Assembly: GCA_965263355.1 (NCBI GenBank)
Contig: CBDHHL010000056.1
Coordinates: 608,001 to 672,000 of the forward strand
Source of the DNA: Leptolyngbyaceae cyanobacterium
GTDB taxonomy: Bacteria > Cyanobacteriota > Cyanobacteriia > Phormidesmidales > Phormidesmidaceae
Length of the DNA stretch: 64,000 nucleotides
Direction: 5' to 3'
A program made the position numbers and the translations under genes. Below are positions 1,540 to 49,039 of this stretch, piece by piece (the stretch's first letter is position 1; each line of letters begins with the position of its first letter). The notes below the pieces were generated by a model, which was not told the DNA's origin, searched no databases, and saw nothing but the letters and a program-made list of their open reading frames with translations.

Positions 1540-1599
1540 CGATGTAGTCTCCTAACTCACTCCGTCGTAATATGGACGGTGCTGCTAACGTGATAAGCA

Positions 1600-1923
1600 A
1601 TGATTTTAGCAACTACCGATACACTTCAAGGACAAAATATTAAGCAATATTTGGGAATTGTCACTGCCGAGGTAGTTTATGGTAGTAACATGATCCGGGA
1701 TTTCTTTGCTGGTATCCGGGATGTTTTAGGGGGACGTACAGGATCCTACGAGCGTATTTTTGAACGGGGTCAACAGGACGCCCTCAAAGAATTAGAGAAG
1801 CGTGCCCAGCAGCTGGGGGCTGATGCTGTCATCGGCGTTCATTTAAAGACTGACACGATTAACCTGGATGAAACTGGGGTGCTGATGTTGATTACGGCCA
1901 GTGGAACGGCGATCAAGCTTTAG
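1600..1923 (+). CDS. YbjQ/UPF0145 family protein
   Basis: MILATTDTLQG...RDFFAGIRDVLGGRTGSYE...LGADAVIGV...ASGTAIKL matches the UPF0145 pattern. Confidence 0.92.
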   Translation: MILATTDTLQGQNIKQYLGIVTAEVVYGSNMIRDFFAGIRDVLGGRTGSYERIFERGQQDALKELEKRAQQLGADAVIGVHLKTDTINLDETGVLMLITASGTAIKL

Positions 1924-2224
1924 GTCGGGAATGGGGAATTTCGATAGCCTTTGCTCCGTCTGCACCGACGCAGTATTAGGCTACTTGGGCAGAATCACCA
2001 ACCGTGACTAATGCTGAGTAACTTCACCAAGCGCTTCTTGCAGAATTTCATCACTAACACCATGCCATTTCAGACTGGTAATTAATATAAAGACAGTATC
2101 TCCCTCCAAGCGCTCTAAATCAGCCCGAAGACCTTGTCCAAATAGGTACGAGCTAGAGATTGATATCCCGAAACCCCGAGTATTGTCGTCCCCTCTGACA
2201 TCAACTAAATTTTGAAGCTCAAGA

Positions 2225-2259
2225 AAGCCCCCTCGAATCTTAAAGGTTCGAGGGGGCTT
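2225..2259 (-). terminator. Intrinsic terminator downstream of the RTX gene
   Basis: 13-bp inverted repeat aagccccctcgaa / ttcgagggggctt about 60 nt after the stop, followed by a U-rich tail on the minus strand. Confidence 0.75.
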
Positions 2260-2321
2260 ATAAATTAGCCGACCAAACTGAGAGAGGGCTAACTTAGCAG
2301 CCCTATTAGGCAAGTTATTGA

Positions 2322-5300
2322 CTACACAAACGTAAACTGTTGACTATTATTCAAGTTCAGACTAGATGCATTAACTCCTTCAACGACACCAATCAAGTCA
2401 CCTGAGAAGCTAATACCTGCACTGATAACGCCATTAAGTGTCACATTAGAGATAAAGTAATCCGTAGCACTCCCTACCAGCTGAATGGTGTCAACAATAT
2501 CACCTGGAACATCAAATATGTCGAAGTCTGTAATAATGGCATAATCTAGATTGCCAAAATCATTGTAGAAGACTTCGCCAAGGCCGCCTTGCCGCTCACC
2601 CAAAACAAATATATCTTGGTCGTTGATATTCCCACTTGTGAGCGTATCAATTTCGCCACTTCCCCCTGCAACAAAGCTAGTACCATTTAGAACATCATTA
2701 CCAGATCCACCATTGATTAGGTCATTGCCTGCCCCACCGAAGATGAAGTCATTACCACCTAGACCATTCAGTAAATCATCGCCGTCTTGACCATCGAGGA
2801 CATTGCTACCACTGTTACCGATAATTGTGTCACTGACTTGGGTGCCGATCACTTGCTCAGTATTAATGATCGTAGTCGTGCCTCCAAAGCCTGTAAAGGT
2901 GTCAGCGGATAGGTCAATGGAGACTGCTTCGGAGAAGGTAACAATTGAACTCAGGTCAAGGGTGTCAAACCCACTGCCACCATTGACGTTGTCAATAAAC
3001 TCGCCATCATTGATAACAATGGTGTCATTTCCACCACCACCGTTAACAAAGTCTTCGTCCAGCCCCCCACTCAGGGTGTCATTACCGGCACCTCCATTAA
3101 TCGTATCGATGCCAATACCACCGGCAATCAGGTCGTTTCCACCCTGACCATCGAGAACATTGTCGGCATTACTGCCCACAATGGTGTCACTGACTTGAGT
3201 ACCGATCACTTGTTCAGTATTAATGATTGTGGTCGTGCCCCCAAAGCCTGTGAAGGTGTCATTGGATAGGTCAATGGAGACCGCTTCAGCAGGCGTAACA
3301 ATTAAACTCAGATCAAGGGTGTCAAACCCATTACCCCCATTGACGTTGTCAATAAACTCACCATCATTGATAACAATGGTGTCATCTCCACTGCCGCCAT
3401 TGACAAAGTCTTCGTCCAGTCCCCCATTGAGGGTGTCATTACCGGCCCCCCCATTAATGGTATCGATACCAATACCACCGACAATCAGGTCGTTTCCACC
3501 CTGACCATCCAATAAGTCATCACCATCTTGACCATCGAGGATATTGTCGGCATTATCGCCCACAATGGTGTCATTAACTTGGGTACCGATTACTTGCTCA
3601 GTATTAATGATTGTGGTTGTACCCCCAAAGCCTGTGAAGGTGTCAGTGGACAGGTCAATGGAGACCGCTTCAGAGAAGGTGACAATTGAACTCAGATCAA
3701 GGGTGTCAAACCCGCTGCCGCCATTGACATTGTCAATAAACTCGCCATCATTGATAACAATGGTGTCATCTCCACTGCCGCCATTGACAAAGTCTTCGTC
3801 CAGTCCCCCATTGAGGGTGTCATTACCGGCCCCCCCATTAATGGTATCGATACCAATACCACCGACAATCAGGTCGTTTCCACCCTGACCATCCAGTAAG
3901 TCATCACCATTTTGACCATCGAGGATATTGTCGGCATTATCGCCCACAATGGTGTCACTAACTTGGGTACCAATGACTTGCTCAATGTTAGTAATCGTGG
4001 TTGTGCCTCCAAAGCCTGTGAAGCTATTGGTGGACAGGTTAATGGAGACTGCTTCAGCAGGCGTAACAATTGAACTCAGATCAAGGGTGTCAAACCCACT
4101 GCCGCCATTGACGTTGTCGATAAACTCGCCATCATTAATAACAATGGTGTCATCTCCACCACCACCGTTGACAAAGTCTTCATCTAGACCTCCATTCAGG
4201 GTGTCATTACCGGCCCCTCCATTAATCGTGTCGATGCCAATACCACCCGCGATCAGGTCGTTTCCACCCTGACCGTCGAGGACATTGTCGGCATCATCGC
4301 CCACAATGGTGTCACTAACTTGGGTACCAATGACTTGCTCAATATTCGTAATCGTGGTCGTGCCCCCAAAGCCTGTAAAGCTATTGGTGAATAGGTCAAT
4401 GGAGACCGCTTCAGCAGGCGTAACAATTAATCGTGGTACCAATGACTTGCTCAATATTCGTAATTGTCTGTGAAGCTATTGGTGGTCAAGGGTGTCAAAC
4501 CCACTGCCGCCATTGACGTTGTCAATAAACTCGCCATCATTGATAACAATGGTGTCATCTCCACCGCCACCGTTGACAAAGTCTTCGTCCAGTCCTCCAT
4601 TCAGGGTGTCATTACCGGCCCCCCCGTTAATCGTGTCGATGCCAATACCACCCGCGATTAGGTCGTTTCCACCCTGACCGTCGAGGACATTGTCGGCATC
4701 ATCGCCCACAATGGTGTCACTAACTTGGGTACCAATGACTTGCTCAATATTCGTAATCGTGGTCGTGCCCCCAAAGCCTGTGAAGCTATTGGTGGACAGG
4801 TTAATGGAGACTGCTTCAGAGAAGGTGACAATTGAACTTAGATCAAGGGTGTCAAATCCACTGCCGCCATTGACGTTGTCAATAAACTCGCCATCATTGA
4901 TAACAATGGTGTCATCTCCACTGCCGCCATTGACAAAGTCTTCATCTAGACCTCCACTCAGGGTGTCATTACCAGCACCTCCATTAATCGTGTCGATGCC
5001 AATACCACCCGCGATTAGGTCGTTTCCACCCTGACCGTCGAGGACATTGTCGGCATCATCGCCCACAATGGTGTCACTAACTTGGGTACCAATGACTTGC
5101 TCAATATTCGTAATCGTGGTCGTGCCCCCAAAGCCTGTGAAGCTATTGGTGGACAGGTTAATGGAGACTGCTTCAGAGAAGGTGACAATTGAACTTAGAT
5201 CAAGGGTGTCAAATCCACTGCCGCCATTGACGTTGTCAATAAACTCGCCATCATTGATAACAATGGTGTCATCTCCACTGCCGCCATTGACAAAGTCTTC

Positions 5301-45989: not shown

Positions 45990-46453
45990 CTCAGATTTCT
46001 CCTAAAAATTCAAATAAAATGTTCTGACTTATTTAATTGAGATCTGAATGCGCAATATCAACCATGATTAGGAACCTTCAGGGATATCGTCACCTGGCGA
46101 TTAAACCTGAGGCGGTAGGATGCTGGTTGTTGATTTTCCCAATGAATAATAGCTATGTTTTGCTAATTAATAGCGAGATTAGGGATTGAATAGTTTTTCT
46201 ACCAAAAACTTAGAAGTCAGAACACCCTTTAAAGAGAGCACATCCTTCTGGAACTTCAAATAGCTACCAAACTATTGTCTTTAGGGAGTTCAGCAACTTA
46301 GCCTAATTTTTGTCTGTAGTTATAGACAGCTTAACCCTGATGATGATACCTTGACACATTTTAGATCTTACAGACCTTAGGTCTGCAAATGTTGTTCCAG
46401 TGGATGTGCATTAATAACTGATGGAGCCTAATTTGAGAGAGCTGTGAAACTTG

Positions 46454-47317
46454 TTAGGCAACTGGGTCAAGGGAATGTTGTGCCCTAACGTTGCGACCAA
46501 TAGCCTGAGCAATGGGCGCTAAACTGTCTATGAGTTTGGCCATGGCCTCTAAGCTAATGGTTTGTCTGGCATCACTTACGGACTTATCTGGTTCTGGATG
46601 GCATTCAATGATTAATCCATCAGCTCCAGCTGCGATCGCAGCCCGAGCTAAGGCTGCAACCAGTTCTCGCTTACCGGTTGCATGGCTAGGATCAACCAGC
46701 ACGGGCAAGTGGATAATTTGCTTAAGGGCGACTACAGCACCGAGGTCTAACACATTGCGAGTATGAGTATCAAAGCTACGAATACCGCGTTCACACAGAA
46801 TAATATTGGGATTACCGTGGCTGGCAATATATTCTGCTGCCATAACAAACTCAGTTACCGTTGCCGCTAACCCTCGCTTGAGCAAAATGGGTTTATCCAC
46901 CTCACCCAAGGCCTTAAGTAAGTCAAAATTTTGCATATTGCGGCTGCCCACTTGTAGTACATCAGCATGGGGCATTAGCTTTTCGATCTGATGGATGGCC
47001 ATGACTTCAGTAACTACGGGTAAACCATAGCGCTGACGGATGGCGGCAAGAATATCCAAGCCAACGTCACCCAGCCCCTGAAATGCGTAGGGGGACGTAC
47101 GCGGTTTATAAATCCCCCCGCGTACGCCCTGTATAGCTAGGTTGGCGTTAGCAATGGCTTCCATTTGAGCCATGCTCTCGATAGAACAGGGGCCACCCAC
47201 GATAAACAGGTCTTGGCCACCGACGGTGATGGCAGGGGTGTGCTGGGTGGCGGGTGCGATCTCAATTTCACTGATGTGGTCAGTGTGCTGTTTAGCAATC
47301 AGTTTGGCGTCCTTCAT
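46454..47317 (-). CDS. aroF: 3-deoxy-7-phosphoheptulonate (DAHP) synthase, type I-beta, catalytic domain only
   Basis: GGPCSIES, KPRTSPYAFQG, GSRNMQNF, LLKRG, LCERGIR, DPSH and SD motifs. True start MKDAKL at 47317; the longer ORF is read-through of the repeat. Confidence 0.95.
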   Translation of the reverse strand: MKDAKLIAKQHTDHISEIEIAPATQHTPAITVGGQDLFIVGGPCSIESMAQMEAIANANLAIQGVRGGIYKPRTSPYAFQGLGDVGLDILAAIRQRYGLPVVTEVMAIHQIEKLMPHADVLQVGSRNMQNFDLLKALGEVDKPILLKRGLAATVTEFVMAAEYIASHGNPNIILCERGIRSFDTHTRNVLDLGAVVALKQIIHLPVLVDPSHATGKRELVAALARAAIAAGADGLIIECHPEPDKSVSDARQTISLEAMAKLIDSLAPIAQAIGRNVRAQHSLDPVA

Positions 47318-47339
47318 GGGTTTAGAAAGTAAGTAAAAA

Positions 47340-47660
47340 AAACAAAAAGCCCACAGCTTTTTGGGTAAACAAAAAGCCCACAGCTTTTTGGGTAAACAAA
47401 AAGCCCACAGCTTTTTGGGTAAACAAAAAGCCCACAGCTTTTTGGGTAAACAAAAAGCCCACAGCTTTTTGGGTAAACAAAAAGCAGCTTTTTGGGTAAA
47501 CAAAAAGCCCGCAGCTTTTTGGGTAAACAAAAAGCCCACAGCTTTTTGGGTAAACAAAAAGCCCACAGCTTTTTGGGTAAACAAAAAGCCCACAGCTTTT
47601 TGGGTAAACAAAAAGCCCGCAGCTTTTTGGGTAAACAAAAAGCCCGCAGCTTTTTTGGGC
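47340..47660. repeat. Tandem array of twelve ~27-bp units aaacaaaaagccc(a/g)cagctttttgggt
   Basis: Counted 12 units with no spacers. Unit 47475-47497 lacks 4 nt, the last unit is 28 nt, and three units carry g in place of a. Confidence 0.95.
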
Positions 47661-47667
47661 TCCGGGC
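47633..47667 (-). terminator. Putative attenuator terminator 2
   Basis: Transcript GCCCG-g-AGC-ccaaaaaa-GCU-g-CGGGC-UUUUUGUUU; its 5' arm overlaps antiterminator arm ACUUGCCCGG. Confidence 0.7.
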
Positions 47668-47690
47668 AAGTCAGTACAGCAAAGCAAACG

Positions 47691-47753
47691 CTACCTACCC
47701 GGTGGTGGCGTAAAAAAGAAAAAAGTAAATTGCCAGCTGTAGCAGACGATCAT
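47691..47753 (-). CDS. Putative aromatic-amino-acid leader peptide 2 (MIVCYSWQFTFFFFTPPPGR)
   Basis: Manual translation: 7 of 20 residues are Phe/Tyr/Trp; lies directly upstream of terminator 2 and aroF. Confidence 0.78.
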   Translation of the reverse strand: MIVCYSWQFTFFFFTPPPGR

Positions 47754-47811
47754 GGCGGTCAATGAAAACGGTCAAAAGAGGTAATCAAAACGAAACCGGG
47801 TACTCACTGAT

Positions 47812-47844
47812 AAAACAAAACCGCAGAGCTTACACCCTGCGGTT
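47812..47844 (-). terminator. Putative attenuator terminator 1
   Basis: Transcript AACCGCAGGG-uguaag-CUCUGCGGUU-UUGUUUU: 10-bp stem with one G-U, then a U-tract. Confidence 0.82.
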
Positions 47845-47872
47845 CACCGGCTTCCCATGCTAGCGCTCGGGT

Positions 47873-47923
47873 TCATCGCCGGTGAACCTGACTAAACCAA
47901 AAGTAAAAAAATGAGTGCTGCAT
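47873..47923 (-). CDS. Putative aromatic-amino-acid leader peptide 1 (MQHSFFYFWFSQVHRR)
   Basis: Manual translation: six consecutive aromatic codons FFYFWF; the 3' end of the ORF contains antiterminator arm GGUUCACCGGC. Confidence 0.82.
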   Translation of the reverse strand: MQHSFFYFWFSQVHRR

Positions 47924-47965
47924 GGGATGAAAATTTTTGCTAGCAATAGCTATCTCTACGTTCGT

Positions 47966-47994
47966 ACCTTAACGTGTCAAATTTAAACCGTCAA
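47966..47994 (-). promoter_or_regulatory. Candidate sigma70-type promoter for the leader-aroF transcript
   Basis: TTGACG-17 nt-TAAGGT on the minus strand, about 40 nt upstream of leader 1. Confidence 0.45.
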
Positions 47995-48022
47995 CCTGTA
48001 GAAGCGTTGCGTACAATGCCCA

Positions 48023-48068
48023 AGATTTTTTGTAGAGGCGTTGCATGCAACGCCTCTACAAAAAATCT
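48023..48068. repeat. Perfect 46-bp palindrome, GTAG-type REP-like; likely ends ridA transcription
   Basis: agattttttgtagaggcgttgca|tgcaacgcctctacaaaaaatct; a degenerate half-copy tgtagaagcgttgc lies at 47997. Confidence 0.85.
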
Positions 48069-48456
48069 ATTTCACTGCGATACATTCAATTTCGACCAGT
48101 ACATCCTTAGGTAGGCGGGCTACCTCAACACAGGCCCGAGCGGGAGCTGTAGCGTCATCAAAGTAGGTTGCATAGATACCATTCATAGTGGCAAAGTCGT
48201 TCATATCCTTTAAGAAAACAGATGTTTTAACCACATTAGCCATGGTGGCTCCCGCTGCTGCCAATACGGCACTTAGATTCTCTAAGCACTGTTTGGTTTG
48301 AGCGGCGACATCACCGTCACCTACCAGGGCTCCACTACTGGGATCCAGGGCTACCTGTCCGGAAGCAAATACCATCTCCCCTGAGGCAATGACGGCCTGA
48401 TTGTAAGGCCCAACGGGGGCAGGAGCCTGATCAGTTTGGACAATGCGACGAACCAT
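48067..48456 (-). CDS. ridA: RidA/YjgF family enamine/imine deaminase
   Basis: APAPVGPYNQA, SGQVAL, PARACVEVARLP and VEIECIA motifs. Confidence 0.93.
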   Translation of the reverse strand: MVRRIVQTDQAPAPVGPYNQAVIASGEMVFASGQVALDPSSGALVGDGDVAAQTKQCLENLSAVLAAAGATMANVVKTSVFLKDMNDFATMNGIYATYFDDATAPARACVEVARLPKDVLVEIECIAVK

Positions 48457-48547
48457 AATGGACCATAGATACCAGCCTGAGTATTTTACCGGAAGGTTAA
48501 CGACCTAAAATACCAAAGACTTAACATGCCTACCACTGTGCTGAACC

Positions 48548-49039
48548 ATGGCTGACTTTAATCGTGTGACTGAGCTTTATCAAGCATTTCCTCAAAAGTT
48601 TCGTAGTATCATGCTGAGCACAGCCAGCGCTGATGGCATACCCCAAGCAAGCTATGCCCCCTTTTTAATTGATGCAGACAAAAAAATATATATATACATA
48701 AGTGGTCTATCAGCCCATACGGCTAATCTCAAGCAAACGGGACGAGTCAGTGTTCTCTTTATCGAAGATGAAGCTGAAACCAAGGAGATTTTTGCTCGCC
48801 GTCGTCTTACCTATGAGTGCACCGCAGCAATCCTGCCCCGTGATACAACCCAGTGGCAAACCTTAATTGATCGATTTGAACAACGCTTTGGCCAAGTGAT
48901 CGGCTTAATGAAGGGTCTGCCAGACTTCCAGATTTTTCAACTGCAGCCCCAGGCAGGACAATTTGTGATGGGATTTGGAGCAGCCTATCGGGTGGGTTCT
49001 CAGGATTTAAATAGTCTGGAGCCGAGACGTCGAAATTAA
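48548..49039 (+). CDS. HugZ/HutZ-like pyridoxamine 5'-phosphate oxidase-family heme-binding protein
   Basis: PQASYAPF, YISGLSAHT.NL, IFARRRLTY and FVMGFGAAY motifs. Confidence 0.85.
   Translation: MADFNRVTELYQAFPQKFRSIMLSTASADGIPQASYAPFLIDADKKIYIYISGLSAHTANLKQTGRVSVLFIEDEAETKEIFARRRLTYECTAAILPRDTTQWQTLIDRFEQRFGQVIGLMKGLPDFQIFQLQPQAGQFVMGFGAAYRVGSQDLNSLEPRRRN

Follow-up and report, generated by a model that had tools for sequence, protein, structure and literature searches.

What sets the expression of aroF, the gene for 3-deoxy-7-phosphoheptulonate (DAHP) synthase, with which the synthesis of aromatic amino acids begins, in a cyanobacterium? The question is raised by a 64-kb stretch of contig CBDHHL010000056.1 from a Leptolyngbyaceae cyanobacterium (GenBank assembly GCA_965263355.1; hereafter the window), whose minus strand carries, in order, a RidA-family gene, a promoter, leader open reading frame (ORF) 1, terminator 1, leader ORF 2, terminator 2, an array of 27-nucleotide (nt) tandem units and aroF. 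An initial annotation of this DNA had proposed that the two leaders, both rich in aromatic codons, belong to a pair of attenuators arranged in tandem ahead of aroF. We analysed the locus together with a comparative set of 80 cyanobacterial loci obtained from an AroF scan, with one genome taken per species.

The proposed architecture draws support from conserved upstream ORFs (uORFs), covarying helices, the geometry of the helix arms and the spacing of the modules in Nostoc-type loci. On this sequence evidence it is very probable that two ribosome-mediated leader-peptide transcription attenuators act in series on a single transcript, which would run from a conserved sigma-70-type promoter to aroF. 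Each module would combine a uORF of 16-25 codons rich in Phe, Tyr and Trp with an intrinsic terminator and an alternative helix that takes the base of the terminator 5′ arm.

Leader reading frames and promoter

The two leaders, of 16 (leader 1) and 20 (leader 2) codons in the window, stand apart from other small reading frames in their composition. Both strands of the window together hold 811 ATG-started ORFs of 10-30 amino acids, and at least five aromatic residues in any eight occur in two of them; these two are leader 1 and leader 2, each scoring six of eight. Both leaders are found upstream of aroF, with their order kept, in 79 of the 80 loci, the exception being a locus (L034) with only 102 nt of upstream DNA. 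Phe, Tyr and Trp are all present in leader 1 in 77/80 loci and in leader 2 likewise in 77/80, and Trp is present in 79/80 and 80/80, respectively. The expectation that orthologues of aroF would be preceded by conserved uORFs rich in these residues is therefore borne out.

The leader peptides hold a median of 6 (leader 1) and 8 (leader 2) aromatic residues (n = 80). Leader 1 is 15-20 amino acids long, with ..SYFYFWF..VH.. as the typical sequence, and leader 2 is 18-25 amino acids long, typically ..WFYGFYFWPR..SG; in one locus (L051) leader 2 has a GTG start codon. The nearest loci (80-87% identity) are those of Leptolyngbya sp. PCC 7375, Leptolyngbya sp. Heron Island J, Leptothoe and related metagenome-assembled genomes (MAGs). 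The remaining ones (65-74% identity) come from Oculatellaceae, Elainellales, Nostoc, Alkalinema, Desertifilum, Crinalium, a Gloeobacterales MAG and others.

That the peptides are kept over so wide a phylogenetic distance could mean that the uORFs encode functional aromatic-rich micropeptides, with the hairpins serving as ordinary terminators of small transcripts. We consider this explanation extremely improbable. Conservation is centred on the aromatic codons and on the C-terminal codons that lie in helix arms (VH.. corresponding to GUUCAC, and SG or PG to CCGGG), the peptides are just 15-25 amino acids long, and the leader pair always stands directly upstream of aroF. Furthermore, leader 2 peptides match no NCBIfam family, and four leader-2 sequences looked up exactly are absent from the protein collection.

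The spacing of the two modules bears on whether they share a transcript. In Nostoc-type loci, about 20-30 nt, which include AAGGAG, lie between the terminator 1 U-tract and the start of leader 2, leaving no space for a second promoter, so the modules would act in series. Upstream of leader 1, the motif TTGACR-N17-TAnnGT is conserved in all three clade alignments (3/3), and in the window it gives a predicted transcription start at about 47960. The initial annotation had listed a candidate promoter here, and its coordinate 47994 falls on the -35 box of this conserved motif. A plain consensus scan misses the promoter, its -10 element being below threshold.

One Nostoc-type locus (L100) carries an insert (~1590-3027) with a 393-amino-acid open frame positioned exactly at the leader 2 start codon, and aroF is no longer within 1.5 kb. 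At a guess, this frame is a transposon-associated gene.

Two predicted RNA switches and their proposed reading by the ribosome

Module 1 was aligned for the window and 79 loci (alignment A1). The alternative helix 1, GGUUCACCGGG : CCCGGUGAACC, has 96% of its cells paired, with double-sided changes at 7/11 pairs. Not one of 500 shuffles reaches the observed values, and pairing falls to 26-54% when the partner is slid. The same helix, which encloses a small inner hairpin between its arms, is predicted independently by the RNAalifold consensus. Terminator 1, AACCGCAGAG : CUCUGCGGUU, is 95.5% paired with double changes at 6/10 pairs, and its U-run is nearly invariant. The two structures have the AACC at 47844-47841 in common. 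Within it, columns 117 and 118 covary with both of their partners, the terminator pair going from AU to GC and the helix pair from UA to UG or CG; where an A of the AACC is replaced by G in relatives, matching changes or wobble pairs appear both in the 5′ arm and at the first U's on the U-tract side. The module 1 fold is more stable than shuffles (z = -2.75).

Module 2 (alignment A2) has the same organization. Helix 2, UUCCGGGU : GCCCGGAA, is 86% paired and shows double changes at 4/9 pairs, and terminator 2, GCCCGGAAC : GUUCCGGGC, is 93.5% paired with double changes at 4/9 pairs and an invariant T-run. The alternative helix overlaps about 8 nt of the terminator 5′ arm. Here, column 147 covaries with both column 93 (UA 40, CG 27) and column 165 (AU 47, GC 20), and the fold is again more stable than shuffles (z = -1.77). 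All four helices of the two modules covary, which agrees with the covarying stems that the initial annotation had led us to look for.

In each module, the final codons of the leader make up the 5′ arm of the alternative helix, and the stop codon lies 0-3 nt behind this arm. From the observed elements, with their conservation, covariation and geometry, we infer stalling, ribosome-polymerase coupling and which way the system responds. Given an ample supply of charged aromatic tRNAs, the ribosome would reach the stop codon and cover the 5′ arm, allowing the terminator to form and transcription to end. A ribosome stalled at an upstream aromatic codon would instead leave the 5′ arm free to pair with the terminator 5′ arm, and the polymerase would read through. 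A response to all three aromatic amino acids is plausible, and since full expression requires read-through at both modules, the response should be multiplicative.

We compared the competing structures through pair probabilities read at the shared base (n = 80), simulating a ribosome on the stop codon by masking 13 nt. In module 1, the alternative pairing exceeds the terminator in 72/80 loci when the 5′ arm is free, and the terminator has P > 0.5 in 80/80 when the ribosome occupies the stop codon. With the ribosome so placed in module 2, the terminator likewise has P > 0.5 in 78/80. These shared-base probabilities supersede a criterion based on the minimum free energy (MFE) fold, which counted a truncated hairpin as a terminator too.

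Several observations weigh against the tandem attenuator model. When the 5′ arm of module 2 is free, the terminator wins at equilibrium in 63/80 loci and the alternative helix in 17/80. The window is among these 17, its alternative helix 2 having P = 0.99 because its terminator 2 stem contains one G-G mismatch. Given that the module 2 terminator is dominant at equilibrium, kinetic control through the order of co-transcriptional folding must be assumed. When the 13-nt mask begins at the first Trp codon, a terminator hairpin persists in the MFE fold in 70/80 (module 1) and 54/80 (module 2) loci, so the outcome depends on the stalling codon and on the assumed footprint, and stalls at the last aromatic codons may not suffice. 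The two structures of module 1 share just 4 nt, which leaves 6 bp able to form a residual hairpin. A protector or pause hairpin of the trp type, GGUUCAC : GUGAAYC, which contains the stop codon, is 92.6% paired but has no covariation in its favour. Neither leader in the window has a Shine-Dalgarno sequence, as had been remarked initially; many cyanobacterial genes have none. To our knowledge, transcription-translation coupling is not established for cyanobacteria. Finally, in two other genomes (L097 and L103) the usual leader 2 stop codon is missing after CCGGG: the frame enters the terminator 2 loop in L097 and crosses the whole of terminator 2 in L103. These variants may work differently or be decaying.

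The dominance of the module 2 terminator in 63/80 loci would also fit switches controlled by the binding of a metabolite or a protein, in the manner of a riboswitch or of TRAP, with the uORFs as incidental features: a stabilizer of the alternative helix would help, and there are inner hairpins between the helix arms. This alternative is very unlikely in view of the uORFs, in which the start codon, frame, length, stop position and aromatic run are kept in 79/80 loci while other codons vary. Sequence conservation is low in the inner regions, and scanning 46000-49000 against Rfam (E up to 10) returned no leader family and no T-box.

Distribution, enzyme and known attenuators

How widely the element occurs in the phylum was assessed in two ways. 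A strict terminator-1 pattern, GTGARCCGYAGN{4,16}CTRCGGYT, recovers 67/80 known sites. It occurs once in each of five relatives and in 40/401 genomes sampled across the phylum, in none of them twice; the pattern read backwards gives 0 sites in the same 401 genomes. Among 30 loci fetched, two were false sites (L091 and L092), each a plain hairpin with neither leader nor aroF. Because of these misses and false sites, a covariance model (R1) was used for the tally. It finds a single full-length match in each of 21/151 sampled cyanobacterial genomes, all of at least 4.7 Mb, and no match in the small genomes of this 151-genome sample. In 47 further loci, several of which are the same place twice, aroF is present in 44, and both leaders are present, by the criterion applied here, in 41 of those 44.

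The attenuated gene encodes a short enzyme. AroF scores 367.3 bits against NF006421 (cut-off 335) and 332.6 bits against TIGR01361 (cut-off 267.75). Its residues 27-277 align to positions 85-337 of the 338 in NF006421, and residues 31-272 align to positions 113-356 of the 360 in a model of bifunctional DAHP synthase/chorismate mutase. The alignments are confined to the C-terminal catalytic part of the profiles, indicating a core-only enzyme. The N-terminal parts that are missing here are regulatory domains in other DAHP synthases. Attenuation would explain how the amount of such a core-only DAHP synthase is made to follow demand.

Copy number and DAHP synthase paralogues were assessed in the genomes of five relatives (G001-G005). 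In three of them, namely the two closest relatives of the window (G001 and G002) and one at 70% identity (G003), no DAHP synthase match (E <= 1e-10) other than the attenuated aroF was found. Three additional DAHP synthase paralogues, whose open frames are longer (359-370 amino acids), occur in G004, and G005 has one clear paralogue and one weak match; the paralogue frames of these two genomes span 359-373 amino acids. A type II DAHP synthase was not found in any of the five relatives (5/5).

The attenuators of Escherichia coli are described by the 1:2/2:3/3:4 model. With E. coli trpL-trpEDCBA and pheL-pheA, as treated in the relevant passages of PMC11802643, the aroF modules share a uORF containing cognate codons, a terminator and an antiterminator that exclude each other and, probably, an input given by where the ribosome stands. 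In the aroF modules, unlike trpL and pheL, the antiterminator 5′ arm follows the regulatory codons and occupies the extreme 3′ end of the uORF. They also differ in that there are two modules in series, each with codons for three amino acids, in that the candidate protector hairpin does not covary, and in that no Rfam leader family matches.

Two full termination switches in one leader are also a feature of tandem riboswitches and tandem T-boxes, for which a sharper response and less leakage are expected. Those elements sense a ligand or uncharged tRNA directly, whereas the aroF modules would be read by a translating ribosome. The tandem form would make it possible to test whether serial switches read by ribosomes sharpen the response as tandem riboswitches do.

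The closest precedent by gene is aroR-aroF of Corynebacterium glutamicum (Neshat et al. 2014, as reported in the part of PMC11802643 that deals with it), in which a DAHP synthase is under leader-peptide attenuation. According to that account, aromatic leader codons (Phe-Tyr-Phe) precede the DAHP synthase operon and stalling raises transcription. The same account, with which we compared the aroF modules by description, differs from our locus in presenting a single module in another phylum, with no Trp codon, with no effect of Tyr supply and with Phe limitation alone being active (PMC11802643). A second relative is uORFC-13-1, a predicted Phe-codon uORF that lies beside a terminator and is found exclusively before aroF, in the description given in PMC8632094. 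As described there, it differs in being restricted to Acholeplasma and environmental sequences, in having a single module, in having a U-run that itself encodes at least one Phe, and in being a computational proposal (PMC8632094).

The putative attenuators near tyrA that are named in the pertinent part of PMC1173090 include none from a cyanobacterium, and a specialist group stated in 2016 that there were no reliable data on attenuation in cyanobacteria, as worded in the relevant passage of PMC4833913. We found no report of cyanobacterial leader-peptide attenuation or of a tandem aroF element in the full-text literature, a scope outside which subscription papers and supplements fall. Leader-peptide attenuation of a DAHP synthase as such was already known in C. 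glutamicum. Given this precedent, what is new is the phylum and the tandem form.

Leader-peptide attenuation requires a ribosome that follows closely behind RNA polymerase. A conserved, covarying double attenuator would establish this type of control in cyanobacteria and would provide a natural reporter of transcription-translation coupling in these organisms. It would also identify a leader to remove or exploit when engineering cyanobacteria to produce aromatic compounds.

The 27-nt array and the layout of the locus

The promoter, leaders, helices, terminators and aroF were all found, and in the order, where the initial annotation had placed them (Table 1), and the transcript 3′ ends that it expected, 47812 and 47633, fall at sequence positions within the two U-tracts. 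Its account of the features, sound in the elements that it described, was incomplete in that it missed a 27-nt tandem array at 47655-47340.

Table 1. Coordinates of the features of the aroF locus in the window
Feature	Position	Strand	Details
RidA-family gene	48456-48067	minus	profile match; a perfect palindromic hairpin lies directly 3′ of it
Promoter	47966..47994	minus	-35 TTGACG 47994-47989, 17-nt spacer, -10 TAAGGT 47971-47966
Leader ORF 1	47873..47923	minus	MQHSFFYFWFSQVHRR plus TGA; aromatic codon run 47911-47894
Alternative (antiterminator) helix 1	47841..47888	minus	predicted; GGTTCACCGGC 47888-47878 pairs with GCCGGTGAACC 47851-47841
Intrinsic terminator 1	47808..47845	minus	predicted; stem 47845-47818, GAACCGCAGGGT / GCTCTGCGGTTT, then U-rich tail TGTTTT
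Leader ORF 2	47691..47753	minus	MIVCYSWQFTFFFFTPPPGR plus TAG; aromatic codons 47741-47712
Alternative (antiterminator) helix 2	47662..47702	minus	predicted; CCGGGTA 47702-47696 pairs with TGCCCGG 47668-47662
Intrinsic terminator 2	47633..47667	minus	predicted; GCCCGGAGC 47667-47659, loop, GCTGCGGGC 47650-47642, then TTTTTGTTT to 47633
Tandem array	47340..47655	minus	27-nt unit x 11.9; repeat detection
aroF	46454..47317	minus	287-amino-acid type I-beta DAHP synthase; start codon at 47317

The array unit, CCCAAAAAGCTGYGGGCTTTTTG(TTTA), is a copy of the terminator 2 loop, 3′ arm and U-tract. It is found 11 times (0 expected), together with one copy that lacks 4 nt, and the rest of the window contains none. 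The copies carry C/T variants and show a 158-nt higher-order period, and T8 follows the last unit. Leader 2 and aroF are 373 nt apart, and the array takes up 316 nt of this spacer, which measures 74-87 nt in the 16 closest relatives, from which the array is absent, and has a median of 109 nt overall. The 376 nt between the stop codon of leader 2 and the start codon of aroF, mostly array, fold into long hairpins (-138 kcal/mol). A terminator-like score is reached by the last unit, which has the T8 behind it, and by the short unit only. The most likely origin of the array is slippage, by which the distal half of terminator 2 would have been expanded. A 394-amino-acid ORF with a TTG start (46454-47638), which crosses the array in the aroF reading frame, was rejected as a by-product of the 27-nt period; the AroF proteins of relatives start at MKDAKL.

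Among sequencing runs, this stretch was found in contigs from three runs of one study (X1-X3) and in no RNA run. Unitigs from X1-X3 match the flanks exactly and end at either edge of the array, with no short-read unitig crossing it, as would be seen if the array were an assembly artefact. We judge an artefact to be quite unlikely, because the copies differ in an ordered manner, through the C/T variants, the shortened unit and the higher-order period. Small repeat unitigs also occur at 3-8x the flank word depth in all three runs, although these may derive from the source sample and so not be independent. A contig (X4) of a related organism departs from the window sequence right after terminator 2.

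A structured array of 316 nt between module 2 and aroF could affect stability or translation, and the modules might act post-transcriptionally, through mRNA stability, processing or aroF translation, with no premature termination. This is very unlikely: GC-rich hairpins followed by conserved U-runs are features of intrinsic terminators, and a spacer with a median of 109 nt is too long for direct occlusion of the aroF start.

A more far-reaching proposal, which we rate as improbable, is that the attenuator is ancient and vertically kept, that it would prove tight ribosome-polymerase coupling in a Rho-less phylum, and that the array, a 12-fold amplification of the terminator 2 3′ arm and U-tract, is a copy-number-variable tuner of aroF and not junk. 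The suggestion of ancient control comes from the presence of the tandem attenuator in the Gloeobacterales MAG. If the proposal were true, the array would offer many registers for a single 5′ arm, ending in the T8-backed hairpin 26 nt before aroF, and would set a basal level of aroF expression that slippage could change.

The same Rfam scan gave chance matches that we rejected, namely microRNA models on the palindrome of the RidA terminator and a trpB motif (E = 6.2) inside the array. This palindromic hairpin (48023-48064), directly 3′ of the RidA gene, has T6 and A6 at its flanks and resembles a bidirectional terminator. Unitigs over it have 3-20x the flank depth in runs X1-X3, yet it is single copy in the window; other copies of it may be dispersed over the rest of the genome.
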